DNA of 64,000 nt from positions 454,045 through 518,044 of the forward strand of contig JAKAEA010000001.1 in NCBI GenBank assembly GCA_021818465.1, given 5' to 3'. A program made the position numbers and the translations under genes. The notes below the pieces were generated by a model, which was not told the origin of the DNA, did no database searches, and was given only the letters and a program-made list of their open reading frames with translations. Each line of letters opens with the position of its first letter. Positions within the stretch are counted from its first letter, which is position 1. This document shows positions 16,902-55,215 of the stretch, in pieces. This DNA comes from a bacterium. Lineage in GTDB: Bacteria; Patescibacteriota; Minisyncoccia; Phycocordibacterales; JAKAEA01.

Positions 16902-17950
16902 CCCCCATATCTTCTCGTATCTGGAACCACATCGCTTCAGCACAACGCATTCTTTTGCATTGTCACCCCAACACTGATGGCGACAGTGTTGGTAGCGTTT
17001 TGGCTATGGCTCACGTGCTTATTGGTTTAGGTAAAACAGTTACTGTTATCGCTGGTGACAATGATCCATTGCCTGACTATTTATCTTTTTTACCTGGATA
17101 CCAAACTATTCTTGCTAAAGATTTTTTCCAAATTAATGTAAATGATTTTGATCTTTTCCTCATTTTAGACACGGGCGCACCAATTCAAATCTCCAGAAAA
17201 GGCGATATTTCGTTTCCTCTTGCTATTCCTACTGTAGTTATTGACCACCATGTTTCTAATACAGCCTTTGGCACTGAAAATCTTATCGATACGGAAGCTC
17301 CAGCAACGGCCCAAATTCTCTACTATCTTTTTAAAGAATGGGGTATAGATATTAATCACAACATTGCATTATGTCTTTTTATTGGCATATATACTGATAC
17401 AGGCGGGTTTAAATTCCTACGAACCTCTGAAAAAACGTTCCGGATGGCGGCGGCGTTAGCGAATAAAGTACCAGAATTTACAGAATATATTTTTACTCTA
17501 GAAAACAGTAATTCACCAGGATGGACTGTGTTTATGAAGATTGCATACGCTAATATAAGGGTTTTATATAACGCCGTAGCGATAAGCTCAATTTCATACG
17601 AAGAAATAACTCATAATAATATAAATCGAAATGAATTAAATACCAGTATGTTTGCTGGTATTTTAAAATCTATCAGAGGATGGAATATTGGAATAATGTG
17701 CACTGAAGAAAAGCCGGGGGAGACAAAAATTAGTTTTAGAACCCGAGACGCCGTGCAATACGATGTAACAAAATTAGCGGCTGCTCTTGGCGGCGGCGGC
17801 CATCCGGCCGCCGCCGCTACATACCTCAAAGCACCCTTAGACATTGTTTTTAAACAAATTCAAGAAATACTACCTAGAATTTATCCCACATTGACTCTGA
17901 CCACACAACCCATTTTTGAAAAAACAACATATTTGAAAAAAAGTCAATAA
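16898..17950 (+). CDS. nrnA: DHH/DHHA1 family phosphoesterase (NrnA-like)
   Basis: DHH motifs (HCHPNTDGDS, DHH) and a C-terminal DHHA1 glycine-rich GGGGH motif. Confidence 0.8.
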   Translation: MTPISSRIWNHIASAQRILLHCHPNTDGDSVGSVLAMAHVLIGLGKTVTVIAGDNDPLPDYLSFLPGYQTILAKDFFQINVNDFDLFLILDTGAPIQISRKGDISFPLAIPTVVIDHHVSNTAFGTENLIDTEAPATAQILYYLFKEWGIDINHNIALCLFIGIYTDTGGFKFLRTSEKTFRMAAALANKVPEFTEYIFTLENSNSPGWTVFMKIAYANIRVLYNAVAISSISYEEITHNNINRNELNTSMFAGILKSIRGWNIGIMCTEEKPGETKISFRTRDAVQYDVTKLAAALGGGGHPAAAATYLKAPLDIVFKQIQEILPRIYPTLTLTTQPIFEKTTYLKKSQ

Positions 17951-18034
17951 TCTAGCCTAACTATTTTTACTAAATAAACGCTTTACTTGGCCATTTTTTT
18001 ACTCTTGCCATTAATAAAAATTCATTGTCTTCTA

Positions 18035-18063
18035 TTGACAGGGCAAAACAAGTTTGTTATAAT
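18035..18063 (+). promoter_or_regulatory. Consensus sigma-70 promoter TTGACA-17 nt-TATAAT
   Basis: Exact match to the consensus hexamers with optimal spacing. A GC hairpin plus U-tract (18073-18097) follows immediately. Confidence 0.55.
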
Positions 18064-18104
18064 AGAGCCATTCAGAGCTCGGCTCTGATTTTTATTTCTG
18101 AAAG

Positions 18105-18658
18105 ATGCGTTTCGGTTTGGTCGCCGAAATGCCTCCCAGGTTTATTACCATAAACAGTCACGTATTATACCTTTTACGACTGCTGTAGCCCTACTTCTCT
18201 CGACAACTCTTGCTCCTTCAAATAGCATTCTGGCATATCAAAATCCAATCTCTACGCCTGTTATTGATGCCGCATCAACGACGATTTCATCGACAAGTGA
18301 CACCCTTACTTCTGCAACACCTTTAGCGACAACTTCTTCCAATACCGCCGCTACCGATCCTATTAACGTTCGCGAATACGTTGAACACTACTTTGCCAAA
18401 ACACCGATTCTTATTAAGATCGCCGGCTGTGAGTCGCAGTTTCGTCAATATGATAAAAATGGCAATGTTCTTCGTGGTGCTATCGTGCACCAAGACATTG
18501 GCGTTATGCAAATCAACGAAACGTACCAAGGCGCACTTGCTTCAGCTCTTGGATACAACATCTACACCCTACAAGGCAACGTAGCGTATGCACAATGGCT
18601 ATATAATCAGGAGGGAGCACAACCTTGGTCATCTTCAAGTGCTTGCTGGAATCGCTAA
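18105..18658 (+). CDS. Secreted Rpf/transglycosylase-like domain protein; long frame (18089-18658) has no in-frame ATG/GTG/TTG until 18485 (GTG, too late to cover the signal peptide and domain); probable frameshift relative to ATG 18105/18129 or a non-canonical start
   Basis: The stop-to-stop frame 18089-18658 encodes a signal peptide (KQSRIIPFTTAVALLLSTTLAPSNSILA), an S/T linker, and a C-terminal domain (IAGCESQFRQYDKNG...GVMQIN...LQGNVAYAQW..QPW...C) matching the Rpf/transglycosylase-like fold. The only upstream ATGs (18105, 18129) are in the +1 frame and end after 27 and 19 codons. Confidence 0.5.
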
Positions 18659-18757
18659 AAATTGTAATTATTTGTAGGCTAGTATATCTACAATACTGGA
18701 TAGTCGAAAATTGCTTCACCTATAATGAAGCAATTTTCGTATACGTATCTGCCGTAT

Positions 18758-19576
18758 TTACATATGTTCTAAGTTCGTAGCAACTAAAAGATTTTTGAGT
18801 ACCTGTATAGTTTCTTCGGGCCCTTGTACTGCTACACATAAAGCACCAACAGTGAGTGCGGGCGCATCATTGCCGTCAGGAAAAAGTTCATCACCAACAT
18901 ATACCATTCGTTGCGGTGTTATAGAAAATGTTGTTAAAAGTTTTCGAAGACCATACGCTTTATCAATACCAGCACGAGTAATATCAATAGATGTTGCGCC
19001 GCCAATATGAATAGAGAATCCTGGCAATAAAGGCTTGAGGGCGGCTACCATAGCAGATCGTTTACGATGCTCAGGATCCCACGTTTTTTTTATATCCAAA
19101 GGCGCTTCCATACCATAGGCTGAAAAAGTAATTTGTGTGGAGCGATCTTCAATAATCGGGCCATAGGTCGTCGGTGGTTGCACAAAACCAACAGTAGTAA
19201 ACGCGTGTGCAAAAGCTTCTCTGATCTTTTGTTTTTCTTCGTCAGTAAACGGCTGATCCTGTGTACATTGCCATTTATTAGTATGAGCATCATAGCGACA
19301 CAGCTCACCACCATCAGTCGGCAAAATAGAGAGATTGGCTAACAAAGAAATGGGGCAGGGGAGATTATGTAAAAATTGACTCTGAAACTGCGCAAACGAT
19401 GCGCCAGAAATAACTGCAACTTTCCAATGTTGTAAAATTTTAATCAGTACTGCTGCCATTTCTGGTTGAAGAGGTGATTTACTTGGTGCTAAAGTCCCAT
19501 CCAGATCAAAAGCAATAATATCAATATTTTTAGGTACTATTTGGGCTATATTTTTAAGCGAAATTAGAGCACACAT
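18758..19576 (-). CDS. Eukaryotic-type phosphomannomutase-like HAD-IIB hydrolase
   Basis: FDLDGTL motif, and the C-terminal GGATSIDI..GIDKAYGL....VYVGDELFPDGNDAPAL pattern parallels PMM (GG.ISFDV..GWDK.Y.L....FFGNETSPGGNDFEI). Confidence 0.6.
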   Translation of the reverse strand: MCALISLKNIAQIVPKNIDIIAFDLDGTLAPSKSPLQPEMAAVLIKILQHWKVAVISGASFAQFQSQFLHNLPCPISLLANLSILPTDGGELCRYDAHTNKWQCTQDQPFTDEEKQKIREAFAHAFTTVGFVQPPTTYGPIIEDRSTQITFSAYGMEAPLDIKKTWDPEHRKRSAMVAALKPLLPGFSIHIGGATSIDITRAGIDKAYGLRKLLTTFSITPQRMVYVGDELFPDGNDAPALTVGALCVAVQGPEETIQVLKNLLVATNLEHM

Positions 19577-19682
19577 ATCAACACCTCTACTATACCAAAA
19601 ACACCAAGAAAATCGTATACTTATATTGTTACAAACCGCCCACAAGACCGTAGTATTTGTAGGGCGATTTGGTTTAAAAACC

Positions 19683-20234
19683 ATGCGCCAATTAGATAAT
19701 GAAAAAGAAATTATAGCCCACTGTCAAAATGGCGAAACCGCTTTTTTTGGAGCGTTATATGATCGCTACGTAAGAACCATATATAGTTTTATTTACTATA
19801 AAACATTCCACAAAGAAACAGCGGAAGATCTTACCAGCGAAACTTTTTTCAAGGCCCTAAACCACATCAAAGCCGTTGATCCTAATCGATCATTCCAGTC
19901 ATGGCTTTACAAAATTGCACAAAATTGTGTAATTGATCATTTTCGTCGCGAACGAAAAACAGAAAATGTTGATGATGTGTGGGATATTGCCGACAACACC
20001 AATCTTGAAATTGACGCTAATGTTTCTTTACAAATTAGTGCCTTACGTAAAGAACTTGGCCAACTCTCACATCTACAACGCGATATTATCATTATGCGCG
20101 TATGGCAAGAGTTGTCATATCGAGAAATAGCTGAGATAGTGGGGAAGAGTGAAGCGAGTTGCAAAATGAATTATTCACGAGCAGTTAAACACTTAAAAAA
20201 AGTCGTCCCTATCACCATAGGTATTACTGATTAA
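19683..20234 (+). CDS. ECF-type RNA polymerase sigma factor
   Basis: Sigma-70 region 2 and region 4 HTH (SYREIAEIVGKSEASCK). About 184 aa. Confidence 0.8.
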   Translation: MRQLDNEKEIIAHCQNGETAFFGALYDRYVRTIYSFIYYKTFHKETAEDLTSETFFKALNHIKAVDPNRSFQSWLYKIAQNCVIDHFRRERKTENVDDVWDIADNTNLEIDANVSLQISALRKELGQLSHLQRDIIIMRVWQELSYREIAEIVGKSEASCKMNYSRAVKHLKKVVPITIGITD

Positions 20235-20238
20235 ACCA

Positions 20239-21573
20239 ATGAACTCAATAGAAGAAATTTTAGCCGAACTATACGCTATTGATTCTAGCTTCAAACGCCA
20301 TGAGGTAGATTTGCGATTACTTATTAAGCGCTTACGCCTTACTAAGCCAGATTTTTCTATTGATGACGCATTCGTGCGGCGCTTGCGTTCCGATATTCTC
20401 CATGGTGGCAAACCTAAACCAATTGGCTTTTTAGTTCGCTCTTATTTTATTCAAACAGGTAAAAATCTTTTTCGCTCAAGTGCTTTTGGCACCGCTGTCG
20501 CTCTCGTATTACTTGTACCTTTAGCTTATGCCGCCCAAATTTATCATAAAAATCAGTCCGGATCGTATCAAGTAGATAACGCTTTTGTATCTCTTGGTCA
20601 ACAGCAAGAAATTTCTTATAAACCACAAAACGCTTTTGGCCCTGTCGCGCTGACTACTGTTTCCGCAACAACCGCGGCGACAAACACACCACCTTTGCCA
20701 AGTTCTTCTATTTTTGCCACCATTGCAAGTTCGAGCGCCAGCACAACTGAAATGGCTTCAGTAACAGCCACAGGAACCCCTCCTGCATATATTTTTACTG
20801 GTATAGCACCCTCATTACAAACAACCACGGCAAATGTTATAGAGACTGACACTAGCAGCGATGCTCGTTCTGAACTCCTAGATAACATTCAAAACCTCGG
20901 TTTTGAATTAACAAACATAACGTCTATTGCTAATGCTAATAACAGTGTGGGGGGAATTGAGGTTCAAGAATCTCAACCATTTGGATATATTGTTTCTATG
21001 AATTTAAACAAAATGAGTATTGCAATATCTAAAAATTCAGCAGTGTGGCCAGACGAAACATACCTACCTCTCTCTTCCGACACAAGCGCCACCGACACGA
21101 TCACGGTAGCTTTAAACTTTTTACGATCTCACAATATTGACACATCGAACTACGGACCAGCCACTCTTCTTTCAGAAAATAGTGCTAGCTCTACAGCAAC
21201 TGTTCTCTTGCCACTTATTATTCATAAACAAAATGTGTACAATCCTGATGGAAGTTTGTATGGTATGCTCGTTTCCGTTGACCAAAAATTAGAAAAAGTA
21301 ACGGGAGTAACCGGTATCTCACTTCAAAAATATACGGCGTCACCATATCCAGTTGAAAATAATTTTACAAACATTTTGAACGAACTCAACGCCACTTCAA
21401 CACTCGCAACCAGTACCGCAACTGACACACCACAACTTGAAACACCACTCGCTGGTCTTATTCGCTATACCACCAACAATTACGAATTCTTTGTACCTGG
21501 TCTTATATTCCCCGTTGCTTCCTCTACAAATTCTATTACCATATCACTCTTGAAAGACTCTGCTGGAAAATAA
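20239..21573 (+). CDS. Putative anti-sigma factor / single-pass membrane protein with an S/T-rich extracytoplasmic domain
   Basis: Immediately downstream of the ECF sigma gene (4-nt gap). It has an ~80-aa cytoplasmic N-terminus, one TM segment, and a large exported domain. Confidence 0.45.
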   Translation: MNSIEEILAELYAIDSSFKRHEVDLRLLIKRLRLTKPDFSIDDAFVRRLRSDILHGGKPKPIGFLVRSYFIQTGKNLFRSSAFGTAVALVLLVPLAYAAQIYHKNQSGSYQVDNAFVSLGQQQEISYKPQNAFGPVALTTVSATTAATNTPPLPSSSIFATIASSSASTTEMASVTATGTPPAYIFTGIAPSLQTTTANVIETDTSSDARSELLDNIQNLGFELTNITSIANANNSVGGIEVQESQPFGYIVSMNLNKMSIAISKNSAVWPDETYLPLSSDTSATDTITVALNFLRSHNIDTSNYGPATLLSENSASSTATVLLPLIIHKQNVYNPDGSLYGMLVSVDQKLEKVTGVTGISLQKYTASPYPVENNFTNILNELNATSTLATSTATDTPQLETPLAGLIRYTTNNYEFFVPGLIFPVASSTNSITISLLKDSAGK

Positions 21574-33294: not shown

Positions 33295-35049
33295 TCAGAG
33301 TGCTTGGGACGTATCGACGTGCGTGAGCGCCTGTTCCCAAGTAACACCAACTTTTTTGTGTGGATTAAAGATTCCATCAGGATCAAAAACGTGCTTAGTT
33401 TTCTCAAACAGCGCGTACACCTCCGGGCCATACATTTCTTTCAAAAAACCAGAACGAACGAGACCGTCATTGTGTTCGCCTGTGATGGAACCGTGATACT
33501 GGAAAATAAGTTCGTTAACCTTAGGGGCCAATTCAGCAATCATCTGCGTTGATTTCGGATTGTGGAGATCCATAAGCGGAATGATGTGAAAATTACCGTC
33601 GCCAACATGGCCAGCAATGGTGTAGGTCATCGGATATTTGTCCAAGATAGCATAGAGCTTCGGTAAAAATTCTGGCAAATATTTTGGCGCCACCACAAAG
33701 TCATCAATAAACGGTGCGGTACGCAAACCTTTAACATGTTGACGGAGCATATTGAAGCTCTCACGTCGAATGGTCCAGAATTTTTGCACTTCACGCGGCG
33801 ACTGAGTGATACGCGACGGTGCACTAAACTCTTGCTTGGCAAATTCATGCACACTGGCTTGGGCTTTTTGAGCCGCAGCAAGTGCTGCCGCATCATTGTC
33901 AGCAGTAAACTCAGCCATTAAAACAAGTTTGGGCATACCGCCAGTGAGCACCGCCCAAAATTCAGGTAAAAATTGAATTGCCAAATTTATAAGATTCCCC
34001 TTCATTCGGTGAATCATGATTGGAAAAAACTTTACTGCAAGTTTAAAAGTATGATCGTCGTACGATTCCAAACTTTCTGGTTTAAATTGCAAAAGATGGT
34101 TGGTGATATCACCGAGACGATTCATATCTTTTAAGAACAGGACGAGTAAGCGCGAATGCGTACGCGGTCGAATCAAGCGAACCTTAATTTTTGTGACAAA
34201 ACCAAGCGTGCCTTGGGAACCAACGAGTAATTTGGTGATATCAAAAACGCCCCGCTTTGTGTCGAGTACATTCCACAGATAATAGCCAGCAGAATTTTTA
34301 CTCACTGGCGGCTTGGCCTTTTTCAAAAGTACATCGTTTTTTTCCACCAGCTCACTCATTTGTCGATACACTTCCCCTTCCAAGGTTTGAAGTTTTTTCT
34401 TCTCCTCTAACTCGACAAGCGAGAGCGGTTTAAACACGTACTCATTACCATCGCGTAAAACCATATGTAGTTCCAATACATAATCTTCTGTTTTTCCATA
34501 GAGTAAGGTCTTCTCACCACCGGAATTATTTGAAACCATACCACCAATCGTGCACAGTTCTCGTGATGCTGGATACGACGGTAAAATCATATCCCATTTG
34601 AGCGTAGCCTTATCGAAATCACGAAAATACACCCCGGGTTCAGTAATGGCCCAACCAGCAGTCGTCACGTCGCTCGTCACGCCATCATGAGCTCCCTCAG
34701 TGGTCAATTTTCCTAACTCTTCATGGATTTCGCCAATATGATTAAAGTACCGTGTAAAATCAACGGAAATTGATGATGTAAGTGGCCCACCGCTCATATC
34801 CGTTCCTGCCGAGCGCGCCGTGAGGGAGACGTCGACACCGGCTTTCTTTTGGGTCTCGGCCCACCGTACCAACCGCTTCACATCGTCGGTATGTTTAGGA
34901 AACACTACTAATGTTGGTTTTATAATAAAAAGACTAGCATCTTTACTGTGGCTCGTTAAGGTTTTTTCATCGCTGGCAATATCTCCTTCAAAACCTGTAT
35001 CCTTGATAGCTTCAGTAAAGCGAGCGGACATATCGTCGGAAGAGTTCAT
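33295..35049 (-). CDS. FAD-linked oxidase (PCMH-type FAD-binding domain plus C-terminal oxidase domain), 584 aa
   Basis: FAD-binding segment ...VVFPKHTDDVKRLVRWAETQKKAGVDVSLTARSAGTDMSGGPL... Confidence 0.75.
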   Translation of the reverse strand: MNSSDDMSARFTEAIKDTGFEGDIASDEKTLTSHSKDASLFIIKPTLVVFPKHTDDVKRLVRWAETQKKAGVDVSLTARSAGTDMSGGPLTSSISVDFTRYFNHIGEIHEELGKLTTEGAHDGVTSDVTTAGWAITEPGVYFRDFDKATLKWDMILPSYPASRELCTIGGMVSNNSGGEKTLLYGKTEDYVLELHMVLRDGNEYVFKPLSLVELEEKKKLQTLEGEVYRQMSELVEKNDVLLKKAKPPVSKNSAGYYLWNVLDTKRGVFDITKLLVGSQGTLGFVTKIKVRLIRPRTHSRLLVLFLKDMNRLGDITNHLLQFKPESLESYDDHTFKLAVKFFPIMIHRMKGNLINLAIQFLPEFWAVLTGGMPKLVLMAEFTADNDAAALAAAQKAQASVHEFAKQEFSAPSRITQSPREVQKFWTIRRESFNMLRQHVKGLRTAPFIDDFVVAPKYLPEFLPKLYAILDKYPMTYTIAGHVGDGNFHIIPLMDLHNPKSTQMIAELAPKVNELIFQYHGSITGEHNDGLVRSGFLKEMYGPEVYALFEKTKHVFDPDGIFNPHKKVGVTWEQALTHVDTSQAL

Positions 35050-35068
35050 ATGCTAGTATTATAGCACA
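35050..35068. promoter_or_regulatory. 19-nt divergent region with face-to-face -10 boxes (TATTAT on plus; TGnTATAAT on minus), implying two leaderless transcripts
   Basis: Sequence CATATGCTAGTATTATAGCACAATG: the plus-strand -10 ends 7 nt before ATG 35069, and the minus-strand extended -10 ends 8 nt before ATG 35049. Confidence 0.4.
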
Positions 35069-35680
35069 ATGTCTGTTTCGTTTCTTTTTTCGATTTTCAA
35101 CTTTGTGCCGGCAATTAAATATCCTCTTATTATGCTCGGCGCTCTTTTAGTTGGGCCACTTATGACGATGATAAGTGGCATTTTTGTTCGGCTAAATTTT
35201 GTTGACTTGATCCCTGTTTACTTTACTCTCATTGTTGCTGATATCATCGGCGACATCGGTTGGTATTGGATTGGCCGACGCTGGGGGCGACCATTTATTG
35301 CAAAATTCGGACGTTTTTTTTCTATTACCGAACAACACGTGGTAACACTGGAGAAATTTTTTCATCGATACCATGAGCGTATTTTAATCATTTCAAAACT
35401 AACGATGGGTTTCGGTTTTGCTGCAGTAACACTATTTACTGCTGGTTTCAGCCGTGTTCCCTTCTCTCGTTATATTCTCATTAATGCTATTGGTGAATTT
35501 TTCTGGACAGCAATCTGGCTTGCTATAGGTTTTTTCTTTACCGATCTCTTTATACGTTTAAACAATATTTTGAGTCAAATTACCGTTGTCGTCGCTGCAC
35601 TCATTTTTTTCGCTGCACTCATTGGGGTCGGCAACTATCTTCGCCATCGTTTTATTGATCATAATCATAGTATCGCTTAA
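35069..35680 (+). CDS. DedA family membrane protein (tandem paralog 1)
   Basis: GDIGWYWIGRRWGRPFIAKFGRFFSITE... Highly similar to the next gene. Confidence 0.7.
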   Translation: MSVSFLFSIFNFVPAIKYPLIMLGALLVGPLMTMISGIFVRLNFVDLIPVYFTLIVADIIGDIGWYWIGRRWGRPFIAKFGRFFSITEQHVVTLEKFFHRYHERILIISKLTMGFGFAAVTLFTAGFSRVPFSRYILINAIGEFFWTAIWLAIGFFFTDLFIRLNNILSQITVVVAALIFFAALIGVGNYLRHRFIDHNHSIA

Positions 35681-54735: not shown

Positions 54736-55215
54736 TTAAGAAATCTTAACGATCGTGTACGCAACATCACCAGAGGGTGTTTTTACAGAAATGCTTTCGC
54801 CTTTTTTCTTACCCAATACGGCGGCACCAAGCGGCGAGGAAGCGGAAATCTTTCGAGCGAGCATATCAGCTTCTTCACTGCCCACAACCGTGTAATCGAT
54901 ATTTTCTTTTTTTCCTTCGCGGCGCAATTCAACTTTTGATCCAACAGTTACCACACCACTCTGTTTTCCAGCAGCGTCAGCGTCAACAATCGTAGCACCC
55001 TTAAGTAAGGTATCGAGTTTGCTAATACGATCCTCGAGCATTGCTTGTTCCTCACGAGCTTGATGATACTCGGCATTTTCCGACAAATCACCGAGCTGTT
55101 TAGCATATTCCAATTCTTCAGCAACTTCTTTGCGTTTGGTATTACGTAAATGCTCAAGTTCTTCGGTCAGTTGAACAAATTTTTCCTTTGTTAAATATTC
55201 TTTATTTTCAGCCAT
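54736..55215 (-). CDS. greA: Transcription elongation factor GreA
   Basis: N-terminal coiled coil plus C-terminal FKBP-like domain. Confidence 0.85.
   Translation of the reverse strand: MAENKEYLTKEKFVQLTEELEHLRNTKRKEVAEELEYAKQLGDLSENAEYHQAREEQAMLEDRISKLDTLLKGATIVDADAAGKQSGVVTVGSKVELRREGKKENIDYTVVGSEEADMLARKISASSPLGAAVLGKKKGESISVKTPSGDVAYTIVKIS

Follow-up and report, generated by a model that had tools for sequence, protein, structure and literature searches.

The locus occupies positions 18035 to 18658 on the plus strand of the window, the 64-kb stretch of patescibacterial DNA that was analyzed. It consists of a promoter, a stem-loop followed by a U-rich run, a leader, and a frame encoding a putative muralytic enzyme. 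The gene order S41 peptidase, L9, L27, small ORF, DHH phosphoesterase, enzyme gene and sigma-70-family factor is shared between the window and the contigs of its relatives (loci L001, L002/L003, L004-L006, L007 and L008; one of the homologous proteins, P0006, is found on 11 contigs). The sigma-70-family (ECF-like) factor gene and an S/T-rich ORF of 444 residues behind it, which has a single hydrophobic segment, together occupy 19626-21573. Both adjoin the enzyme gene in all the syntenic loci, and the two may be a sigma/anti-sigma pair. Downstream of the enzyme gene's stop codon, a 14-bp perfect inverted repeat, CGAAAATTGCTTCA / TGAAGCAATTTTCG, with a 7-nt loop lies at 18705-18739 between the enzyme gene and a convergent HAD-family gene. 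It is probably a shared 3' hairpin or a bidirectional terminator. The sole RNA gene detected in the 64-kb window is a tRNA-Glu (anticodon CTC) at 1028-1105.

The promoter matches the sigma-70 consensus at 12 of 12 positions. A -35 hexamer, TTGACA (18035-18040), is separated by a 17-nt spacer from the -10 hexamer of an extended -10 element, TGtTATAAT (18055-18063; TG at 18055-18056, hexamer at 18058-18063), and no other such site is found within 17500-19200. Transcription of the enzyme gene would start at about 18070. Eight nucleotides past the -10 box is a stem-loop, TCAGAGC-tcg-GCTCTGA (18072-18088), with a stem of seven pairs, four of them GC, and a U-rich run, TTTTTATTT (18089-18098), that follows directly. 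A GC-rich stem with a U-run immediately after it has the shape of an intrinsic terminator. A preliminary description of this DNA had reported a textbook TTGACA-17-TATAAT promoter and a GC hairpin plus U-tract downstream of it. Both are present, and the promoter has the extended -10 in addition.

After the TGA at 18086-18088 the frame stays open for 189 codons (18089-18658) and closes with a TAA at 18656-18658. The first in-frame ATG, GTG or TTG is the GTG at 18485, which is 132 codons into the frame, 107 codons past an ATT codon at 18164, and beyond the codon for the putative catalytic glutamate. Two ATGs further upstream, at 18105 and 18129, belong to a different frame that closes after 27 codons. 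The 570-nt frame that reaches 18485 with no canonical start codon, and the two ATGs that are out of frame with it, are thus exactly as they had been described. When all stop-to-stop frames of 90 codons or more in the 64-kb window are compared, the enzyme gene is the only real-looking gene with a start gap of this kind. The gap is therefore a feature of the enzyme gene and not a general property of the sequence.

An alternative genetic code would close the gap. TGA is recoded in some Patescibacteria lineages, and if the TGA at 18086-18088 were read as sense, translation could start at the TTG at 18035, which would then be in frame. Code 11, however, leaves the long ORFs of the window intact, and TGA is the stop codon of 7 of the 62. 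In addition, the TTG at 18035 belongs to the -35 hexamer and lies upstream of the presumed transcript start, and the leaders of orthologues carry TAA or TAG stops. Recoding of this TGA is exceedingly improbable.

The product read from the ATT at 18164 has 164 residues and three parts, a hydrophobic N-terminal segment, a linker and a CES...GVMQIN...PW..C domain, which are the parts that the preliminary description had listed. The first 24 residues, (M)IPFTTAVALLLSTTLAPSNSILA (18164-18235), form a hydrophobic leader, a putative signal peptide recognized by hydropathy. It has the core AVALLLSTTL, a hydropathy window mean of 2.2, and a small-x-small motif, I-L-A, before YQ, as a Sec signal peptide would have. 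Cleavage is probable before YQ, after I-L-A. A positively charged n-region is absent; no K or R is found between the start and the core either in the window protein or in its ATG-type homologues (MIELTTG...). Export is for this reason a less safe prediction than the hydrophobicity alone would make it. The first six residues (18164-18181 in the window) show a family-wide pattern, (M or I)-[IL]-x-[LF]-T-[TA], in which the Thr codons vary synonymously and Lys and Arg do not occur. Sec signal peptides do not usually look like this, and the pattern may belong to another kind of targeting or anchoring signal.

Residues 25-66 (18236-18361) form a low-complexity linker rich in S, T and A. AlphaFold assigned it a pLDDT below 50, and its indels are multiples of three. 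Residues 67-164 (18362-18655) form a muralytic domain of 98 residues with a lysozyme-like fold and a pLDDT above 90. The putative catalytic residue, Glu90 (codon 18431-18433), lies within a Cys-Glu-Ser motif. In 29 aligned sequences Cys89, E90, S91, G113, M115, Q116, I117 and N118 are invariant, and Cys161 is nearly so.

The domain had been labelled Rpf-type. The lysozyme fold and the layout of Cys-Glu-Ser plus a C-terminal Cys stand, but the label itself fits only loosely: the Rpf profile (PF06737) matched none of the 29 members even at E ≤1, and the nearest relatives are SLT domains and EtgA. The Pfam SLT profile (PF01464) gave the window protein 13.3 bits (E 0.063), below the cut-off of 21.3. 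Sub-threshold SLT matches were found in 17 of the 29 members, the best with an E of 1.8e-4. EtgA was the sole PDB profile match (E 0.38), and the family motifs align to its ES...DIGIMQIN. The best structural neighbours are also lytic transglycosylases and EtgA, and Foldseek matches were of the same kind and weak. NCBIfam has no family for the protein.

Like the SLT/GH23 lytic transglycosylases, especially small, specialized ones such as EtgA, the family has the Glu-Ser and then the G-x-M-Q motif in the right order. It differs from them in a domain of only about 98 residues, an invariant Cys before the Glu and a near-invariant C-terminal Cys. It also differs in its occurrence in Patescibacteria, with the domain alone on an S/T linker and below the Pfam SLT threshold. 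The Rpf proteins of Actinobacteria share the small size and the layout of Cys-Glu-Ser and C-terminal Cys, but the central motif here is the SLT-like GVMQIN, and the resemblance is weaker than to lytic transglycosylases. On profile and fold comparison, the domain is a divergent, unnamed member of the lysozyme/lytic-transglycosylase superfamily without a Pfam family of its own. Enzymatic activity and export of the product are both predicted.

A search with the conceptual protein recovered 28 unannotated relatives, one of them labelled Patescibacteria group. Species-representative genomes of Parcubacteria, Paceibacteria and related groups provided 80 further loci, and a metagenome scan for close relatives gave two, one of which was already in the set. 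By profile search the family comprises 2,236 representative clusters at E ≤1e-10. Six loci from different assemblies, the window and L001, L002, L004, L007 and L008, form the window clade. All six have the promoter, the hairpin, a leader motif AGGTTTA, and an ATT heading the hydrophobic segment.

The gene is under selection as a coding sequence. Measured against L007 and L001, the C-terminal domain has a dN/dS of 0.04-0.05, the linker one of 0.19-0.28 and the N-terminal hydrophobic segment one of 0.12-0.30. These values mean that the N-terminal segment is translated and that the gene is under purifying selection, which excludes a pseudogene. Indels are not multiples of three upstream of the ATT; downstream of it they are. 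The preliminary description had pointed to orthologous loci as a check, and had allowed that they might reveal a pseudogene with accumulated stops. Syntenic orthologues from independent assemblies share the same start-less arrangement, and with dN/dS at 0.04-0.3 they have accumulated no stops.

It had also been predicted that gene callers would miss this gene, and the public annotations of the homologues are indeed N-terminally truncated or wrongly extended. Four called proteins (P0001, P0004, P0006 and P0007, from loci L001-L006) illustrate this. P0004, P0007 and P0006 start at an internal GTG, ATG or TTG, and P0001 at a TTG in the leader. Some of these calls, from an internal GTG or ATG, are only 99 residues long. 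One begins at a TTG inside the hydrophobic core, and another, called from a TTG beside the U-run, includes 33 codons of the leader.

The start of the gene was approached by anchoring each of 86 family loci at the codon that heads the N-terminal hydrophobic segment. The anchor codon is ATG in 51 loci, ATT in 33 and ATA in two (L030 and L047). The presumed initiation codon of the window, ATT (AUU) at 18164-18166, aligns codon for codon with the ATG of the 51 homologues. Read from the anchor, the N-termini are M-I-E-L-T-T or I-L-Q-L-T-T and, in the window, I-I-P-F-T-T. At least 17 ATG-type loci have a stop 1-2 codons upstream, which pins their N-terminus at the anchor.

The ATT is conserved at the level of its nucleotides. 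It is found at the anchor in 30 of 30 distinct ATT-type loci, whereas the Ile codons elsewhere in these genes are 36% ATT, 44% ATC and 19% ATA. The context is also constant, with T at -1 in 29 of the 30 and T at +5 in all 30. When a position-weight matrix of this context was run over the whole window, 18164 was the top-scoring site and no second such gene was found. No in-frame canonical codon lies between the upstream stop and the ATT in 23 of the 33 ATT loci. In 10 of the 33 one is present somewhere upstream, and about a dozen ATT-type loci have a TTG or ATG 3-10 codons downstream. Some family members with nearby canonical codons may use another start.

The positional equivalence of ATG, ATT and ATA, together with the excess of ATT over internal Ile codons, makes AUU at 18164 the best reading as a start. 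It is probably the initiation codon of the enzyme gene, this being the simplest reading of the comparative data. In a neighbour-joining tree of the domain of about 100 residues, which is poorly resolved, ATG types are interspersed among the ATT-type loci, which make up at least six groups, and the number of independent switches between ATG and ATT is uncertain.

The segment between the 5' hairpin and the ATT contains a second, lineage-specific hairpin, GATGCGTTTCGG / CCGAAATGCCTC (18104-18135), which carries the two out-of-frame ATGs. Only the window, L007 and L001 have this insertion, and among them it varies by indels whose lengths are not divisible by three; L002, L008 and L004 lack it. It bears directly on the proposal that a single-base assembly error or a real frameshift cut the gene off from the ATG at 18105 or 18129, leaving a mis-assembly or a recent pseudogene. 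One base inserted near the CCC run at 18135-18137 would indeed join ATG 18129 to the enzyme frame. However, no conservation of the ATGs is seen: they are missing from the segment in L007, and L002, L008 and L004 do not have the segment at all. Nor are the indels of this segment between close relatives multiples of three. The start-less arrangement recurs in independent assemblies, and a pseudogene is contradicted by dN/dS of 0.04-0.3 and the lack of internal stops. Such an error or frameshift has very little probability.

In-frame stops are found 1-7 codons upstream of the ATT in eight loci (L002, L045, L075, L008, L068, L069, L004 and L048). L002 has a TAA two codons before the ATT, L008 a TAG four codons before and L004 a TAA six codons before. 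In L002, moreover, ATG, GTG and TTG are absent in all frames between the hairpin and the signal peptide. The stops and the start-free leader of L002 make an upstream start, with or without frameshifting, impossible in several orthologues. Programmed ribosomal frameshifting or bypassing from an upstream ORF is suggested by the 27-codon frame from ATG 18105, which overlaps the start of the enzyme frame. It would require an upstream start that L002 does not have in any frame, and across the clade there is no conserved slippery site or upstream ORF, the upstream ATGs being lineage-specific. This mechanism is slightly less credible again than an assembly error. The preliminary description had offered four causes for the missing start. 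The comparative data favor the non-canonical initiator, ATT 18164, and on their basis an assembly error, a genuine frameshift and programmed frameshifting are rejected.

The main residual alternative to AUU 18164 is initiation at a neighbouring non-canonical codon, either the ATA at 18167 or a near-cognate codon a few positions upstream that would add a K/R n-region (...HKQSR-I-I-P). An ATA directly follows the ATT in the window clade, ATA is the anchor codon of L030 and L047, and many ATT-type loci read K-K-R-L in frame just upstream, which resembles an n-region. The second codon, however, is TTA, TTT or CTT in most ATT-type loci, so that ATA is not conserved where ATT is found in 30 of 30. 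Stops 1-3 codons upstream in L002, L045, L075, L008, L068 and L069 exclude an upstream start in those loci. The ATG-type proteins begin exactly at the anchor, without K or R, and a K-rich reading is expected of an A-rich leader in any frame. A start at a neighbouring codon is therefore unlikely, and AUU 18164 remains the preferred initiation codon.

The motif AGGTTTA (18138-18144) is invariant in all six loci of the window clade. It lies 18-19 nt upstream of the start in these loci, and 19 nt in the window. In L002, L004 and L008 it is cut off from the ATT by in-frame stops or a 1-nt indel, which shows that it is non-coding. Several explanations of the motif were tried and rejected. Its spacing of 19 nt from the start rules out a normal Shine-Dalgarno sequence, and it is not the -35 element of an ECF-type promoter, since the matching CGT is not conserved. 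A hairpin that would bring the SD-like AGG beside the start was dropped as well; the GTTTAT/ATAAAC stem between AGGTTTA and the ATT is weak and not conserved. No conserved pairing partner of AGGTTTA was found, and in a consensus fold of the window-clade leader the 5' hairpin alone was supported.

The distance from the -10 box to the start is 71-188 nt in ATT types versus mostly 51-62 nt in ATG types. The other ATT clades have a different motif, ATTAC, about 21-22 nt upstream, and GGCTT-ATT-TTAC at the start. Mini-ORFs beginning at the upstream ATTAC motif were ruled out by inconsistent frame and length. In ten loci of these ATT/ATA clades (L028, at 2439-2512, and L027, L086, L030, L063, L049, L048, L013, L047 and L045) an extra stem-loop is found 60 nt upstream of the ATT or ATA. 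Compensatory changes occur in all five of its predicted pairs, and it is followed by a conserved ATTAC...TAA...GGCTT-ATT-TTAC block. This stem-loop may be an undescribed cis-regulatory RNA. When the leader, the entire window and 20 loci related to it were searched against Rfam, tRNAs were the only known RNA family returned.

There is no Shine-Dalgarno sequence at the normal distance before ATT 18164. Most of the 56 long ORFs of the window have matches of at most 4 nt upstream of their starts, and in a genome that is SD-poor overall this lack is not exceptional. Several genes have a -10-like box (e.g. TACAAT) about 6 nt before the ATG, as in the minus-strand gene whose frame ends at 54745, and they look leaderless. 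At 35047-35071 two divergent genes start 19 nt apart, with a minus-strand ATG at 35049-35047 and a plus-strand ATG at 35069-35071. Their overlapping -10-like boxes, TATAAT (minus) and TATTAT (plus), lie 6-8 nt from each ATG. The pair probably gives rise to leaderless mRNAs that share one tiny intergenic region.

The promoter and the 5' hairpin of the enzyme gene recur throughout the family. The -35 element stays TTGACA-like, and the shape TTGAC(A/T), 17 nt, TGnTAnnnT is found repeatedly, and 54 of the 55 loci with a good promoter have the TG in front of the -10 box. A hairpin with a T-run begins 5-9 nt past the -10 box in most loci where a simple finder detects one. Between clades the stems are wholly different in sequence and their complementarity is retained, that is, they show compensatory change. 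Because the T-run directly adjoins the ATG in ATG-type loci, a transcript that covers the coding region has to include the hairpin, which therefore cannot be an efficient terminator for this promoter. Its most likely roles are a stabilizer of the 5' end, an attenuator, or an A/U-rich landing site that replaces the Shine-Dalgarno sequence. ATG-type loci such as L015, L074, L020, L026 and L016 have a two-tier hairpin as their entire 5' leader, about 50 nt upstream of the ATG. Its outer stem covaries, its inner palindrome GTAAGCA-yCAT-GCTTAC is conserved, and a U-run follows, then directly the ATG.

Stem-loops at the 5' terminus stabilize bacterial mRNAs such as E. coli ompA and B. subtilis aprE. 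The hairpin of the window is likewise stable and preserved through compensatory changes, and only a few nucleotides separate it from the presumed transcript 5' end. It differs from the ompA and aprE stem-loops in that a U-run always follows, so it also resembles an intrinsic terminator or attenuator.

Taken together, these data suggest that the locus is in all likelihood an intact, conserved gene with an AUU start, encoding a small exported peptidoglycan-cleaving enzyme of a family found in Patescibacteria of the Parcubacteria/Paceibacteria type. Expression would begin at a near-perfect sigma-70-type promoter with an extended -10, with the mRNA starting near 18070. About 17 nucleotides at the 5' end of this mRNA would fold into the GC-rich hairpin, followed by the U-run and then by an SD-less, A/U-rich leader of about 75 nt. 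AUU 18164 would be read as initiator Met. The predicted product is a 164-residue precursor in which a 24-residue hydrophobic leader and the S/T-rich linker precede a 98-residue catalytic domain with Cys-Glu-Ser, GVMQIN and the Cys89-Cys161 pair. A weak AUU behind a maximal promoter would limit how much is made of an enzyme that might lyse its own cell, and by analogy this amount could depend on start-codon proofreading by IF3. The AUU or the hairpin may have a regulatory meaning.

A more speculative and rather doubtful proposal is that the promoter, the hairpin with its U-run, the SD-less leader (with AGGTTTA or ATTAC) and the AUU form a conserved module of translational control, or else that ribosomes here accept AUU far better than those of model bacteria. 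If the former were true, production of a muralytic enzyme would be coupled to the initiation machinery, through IF3 or growth state, across Parcubacteria and Paceibacteria. If the latter were true, proteins of the phylum would be systematically mis-annotated.

The ATT start has practical consequences, in that it makes about a third of the sampled family members invisible to standard gene callers or truncated by them. The alignment provides a correction rule: an ATT heading a hydrophobic leader, with T at -1 and T at +5. Enzymes that cut the cell wall are candidates for self-remodelling and for the attack on host cells in ultrasmall episymbionts. To pair a consensus promoter with so weak a start codon is an uncommon way of setting up expression, and the repeated alternation of ATG and ATT within one family is a natural system in which selection on start-codon strength can be followed in an SD-poor phylum. 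No report on AUU starts or on this enzyme family in Patescibacteria was found in the literature.

In E. coli, infC and pcnB are proven to start at AUU, which supports only about 1-2% of AUG initiation there (10.1101/063800). Under cold, nutrient limitation and ppGpp AUU is a poor competitor (PMC5499595); as a start it is weak and sensitive to IF3 and to physiological state (10.1101/063800, PMC5499595). The secreted protein EbpA of Enterococcus faecalis also starts at AUU; the annotated downstream ATG was wrong and cut off the N-terminus, and the AUU attenuates expression (PMC4447247). The enzyme gene resembles infC, pcnB and ebpA in having a near-cognate AUU in the place of AUG and no canonical alternative. 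With ebpA it shares, in addition, a predicted exported product and a downstream canonical start that would remove the N-terminal leader (PMC4447247). It differs from all three in the lack of a Shine-Dalgarno sequence at the normal distance, in the consensus-strength promoter and 5' hairpin, and in being known from sequence alone. The AUU start proposed here is thus a further case of a known phenomenon. What sets it apart from infC, pcnB and ebpA is that, throughout a protein family of an uncultivated phylum, ATT and ATG take each other's place.
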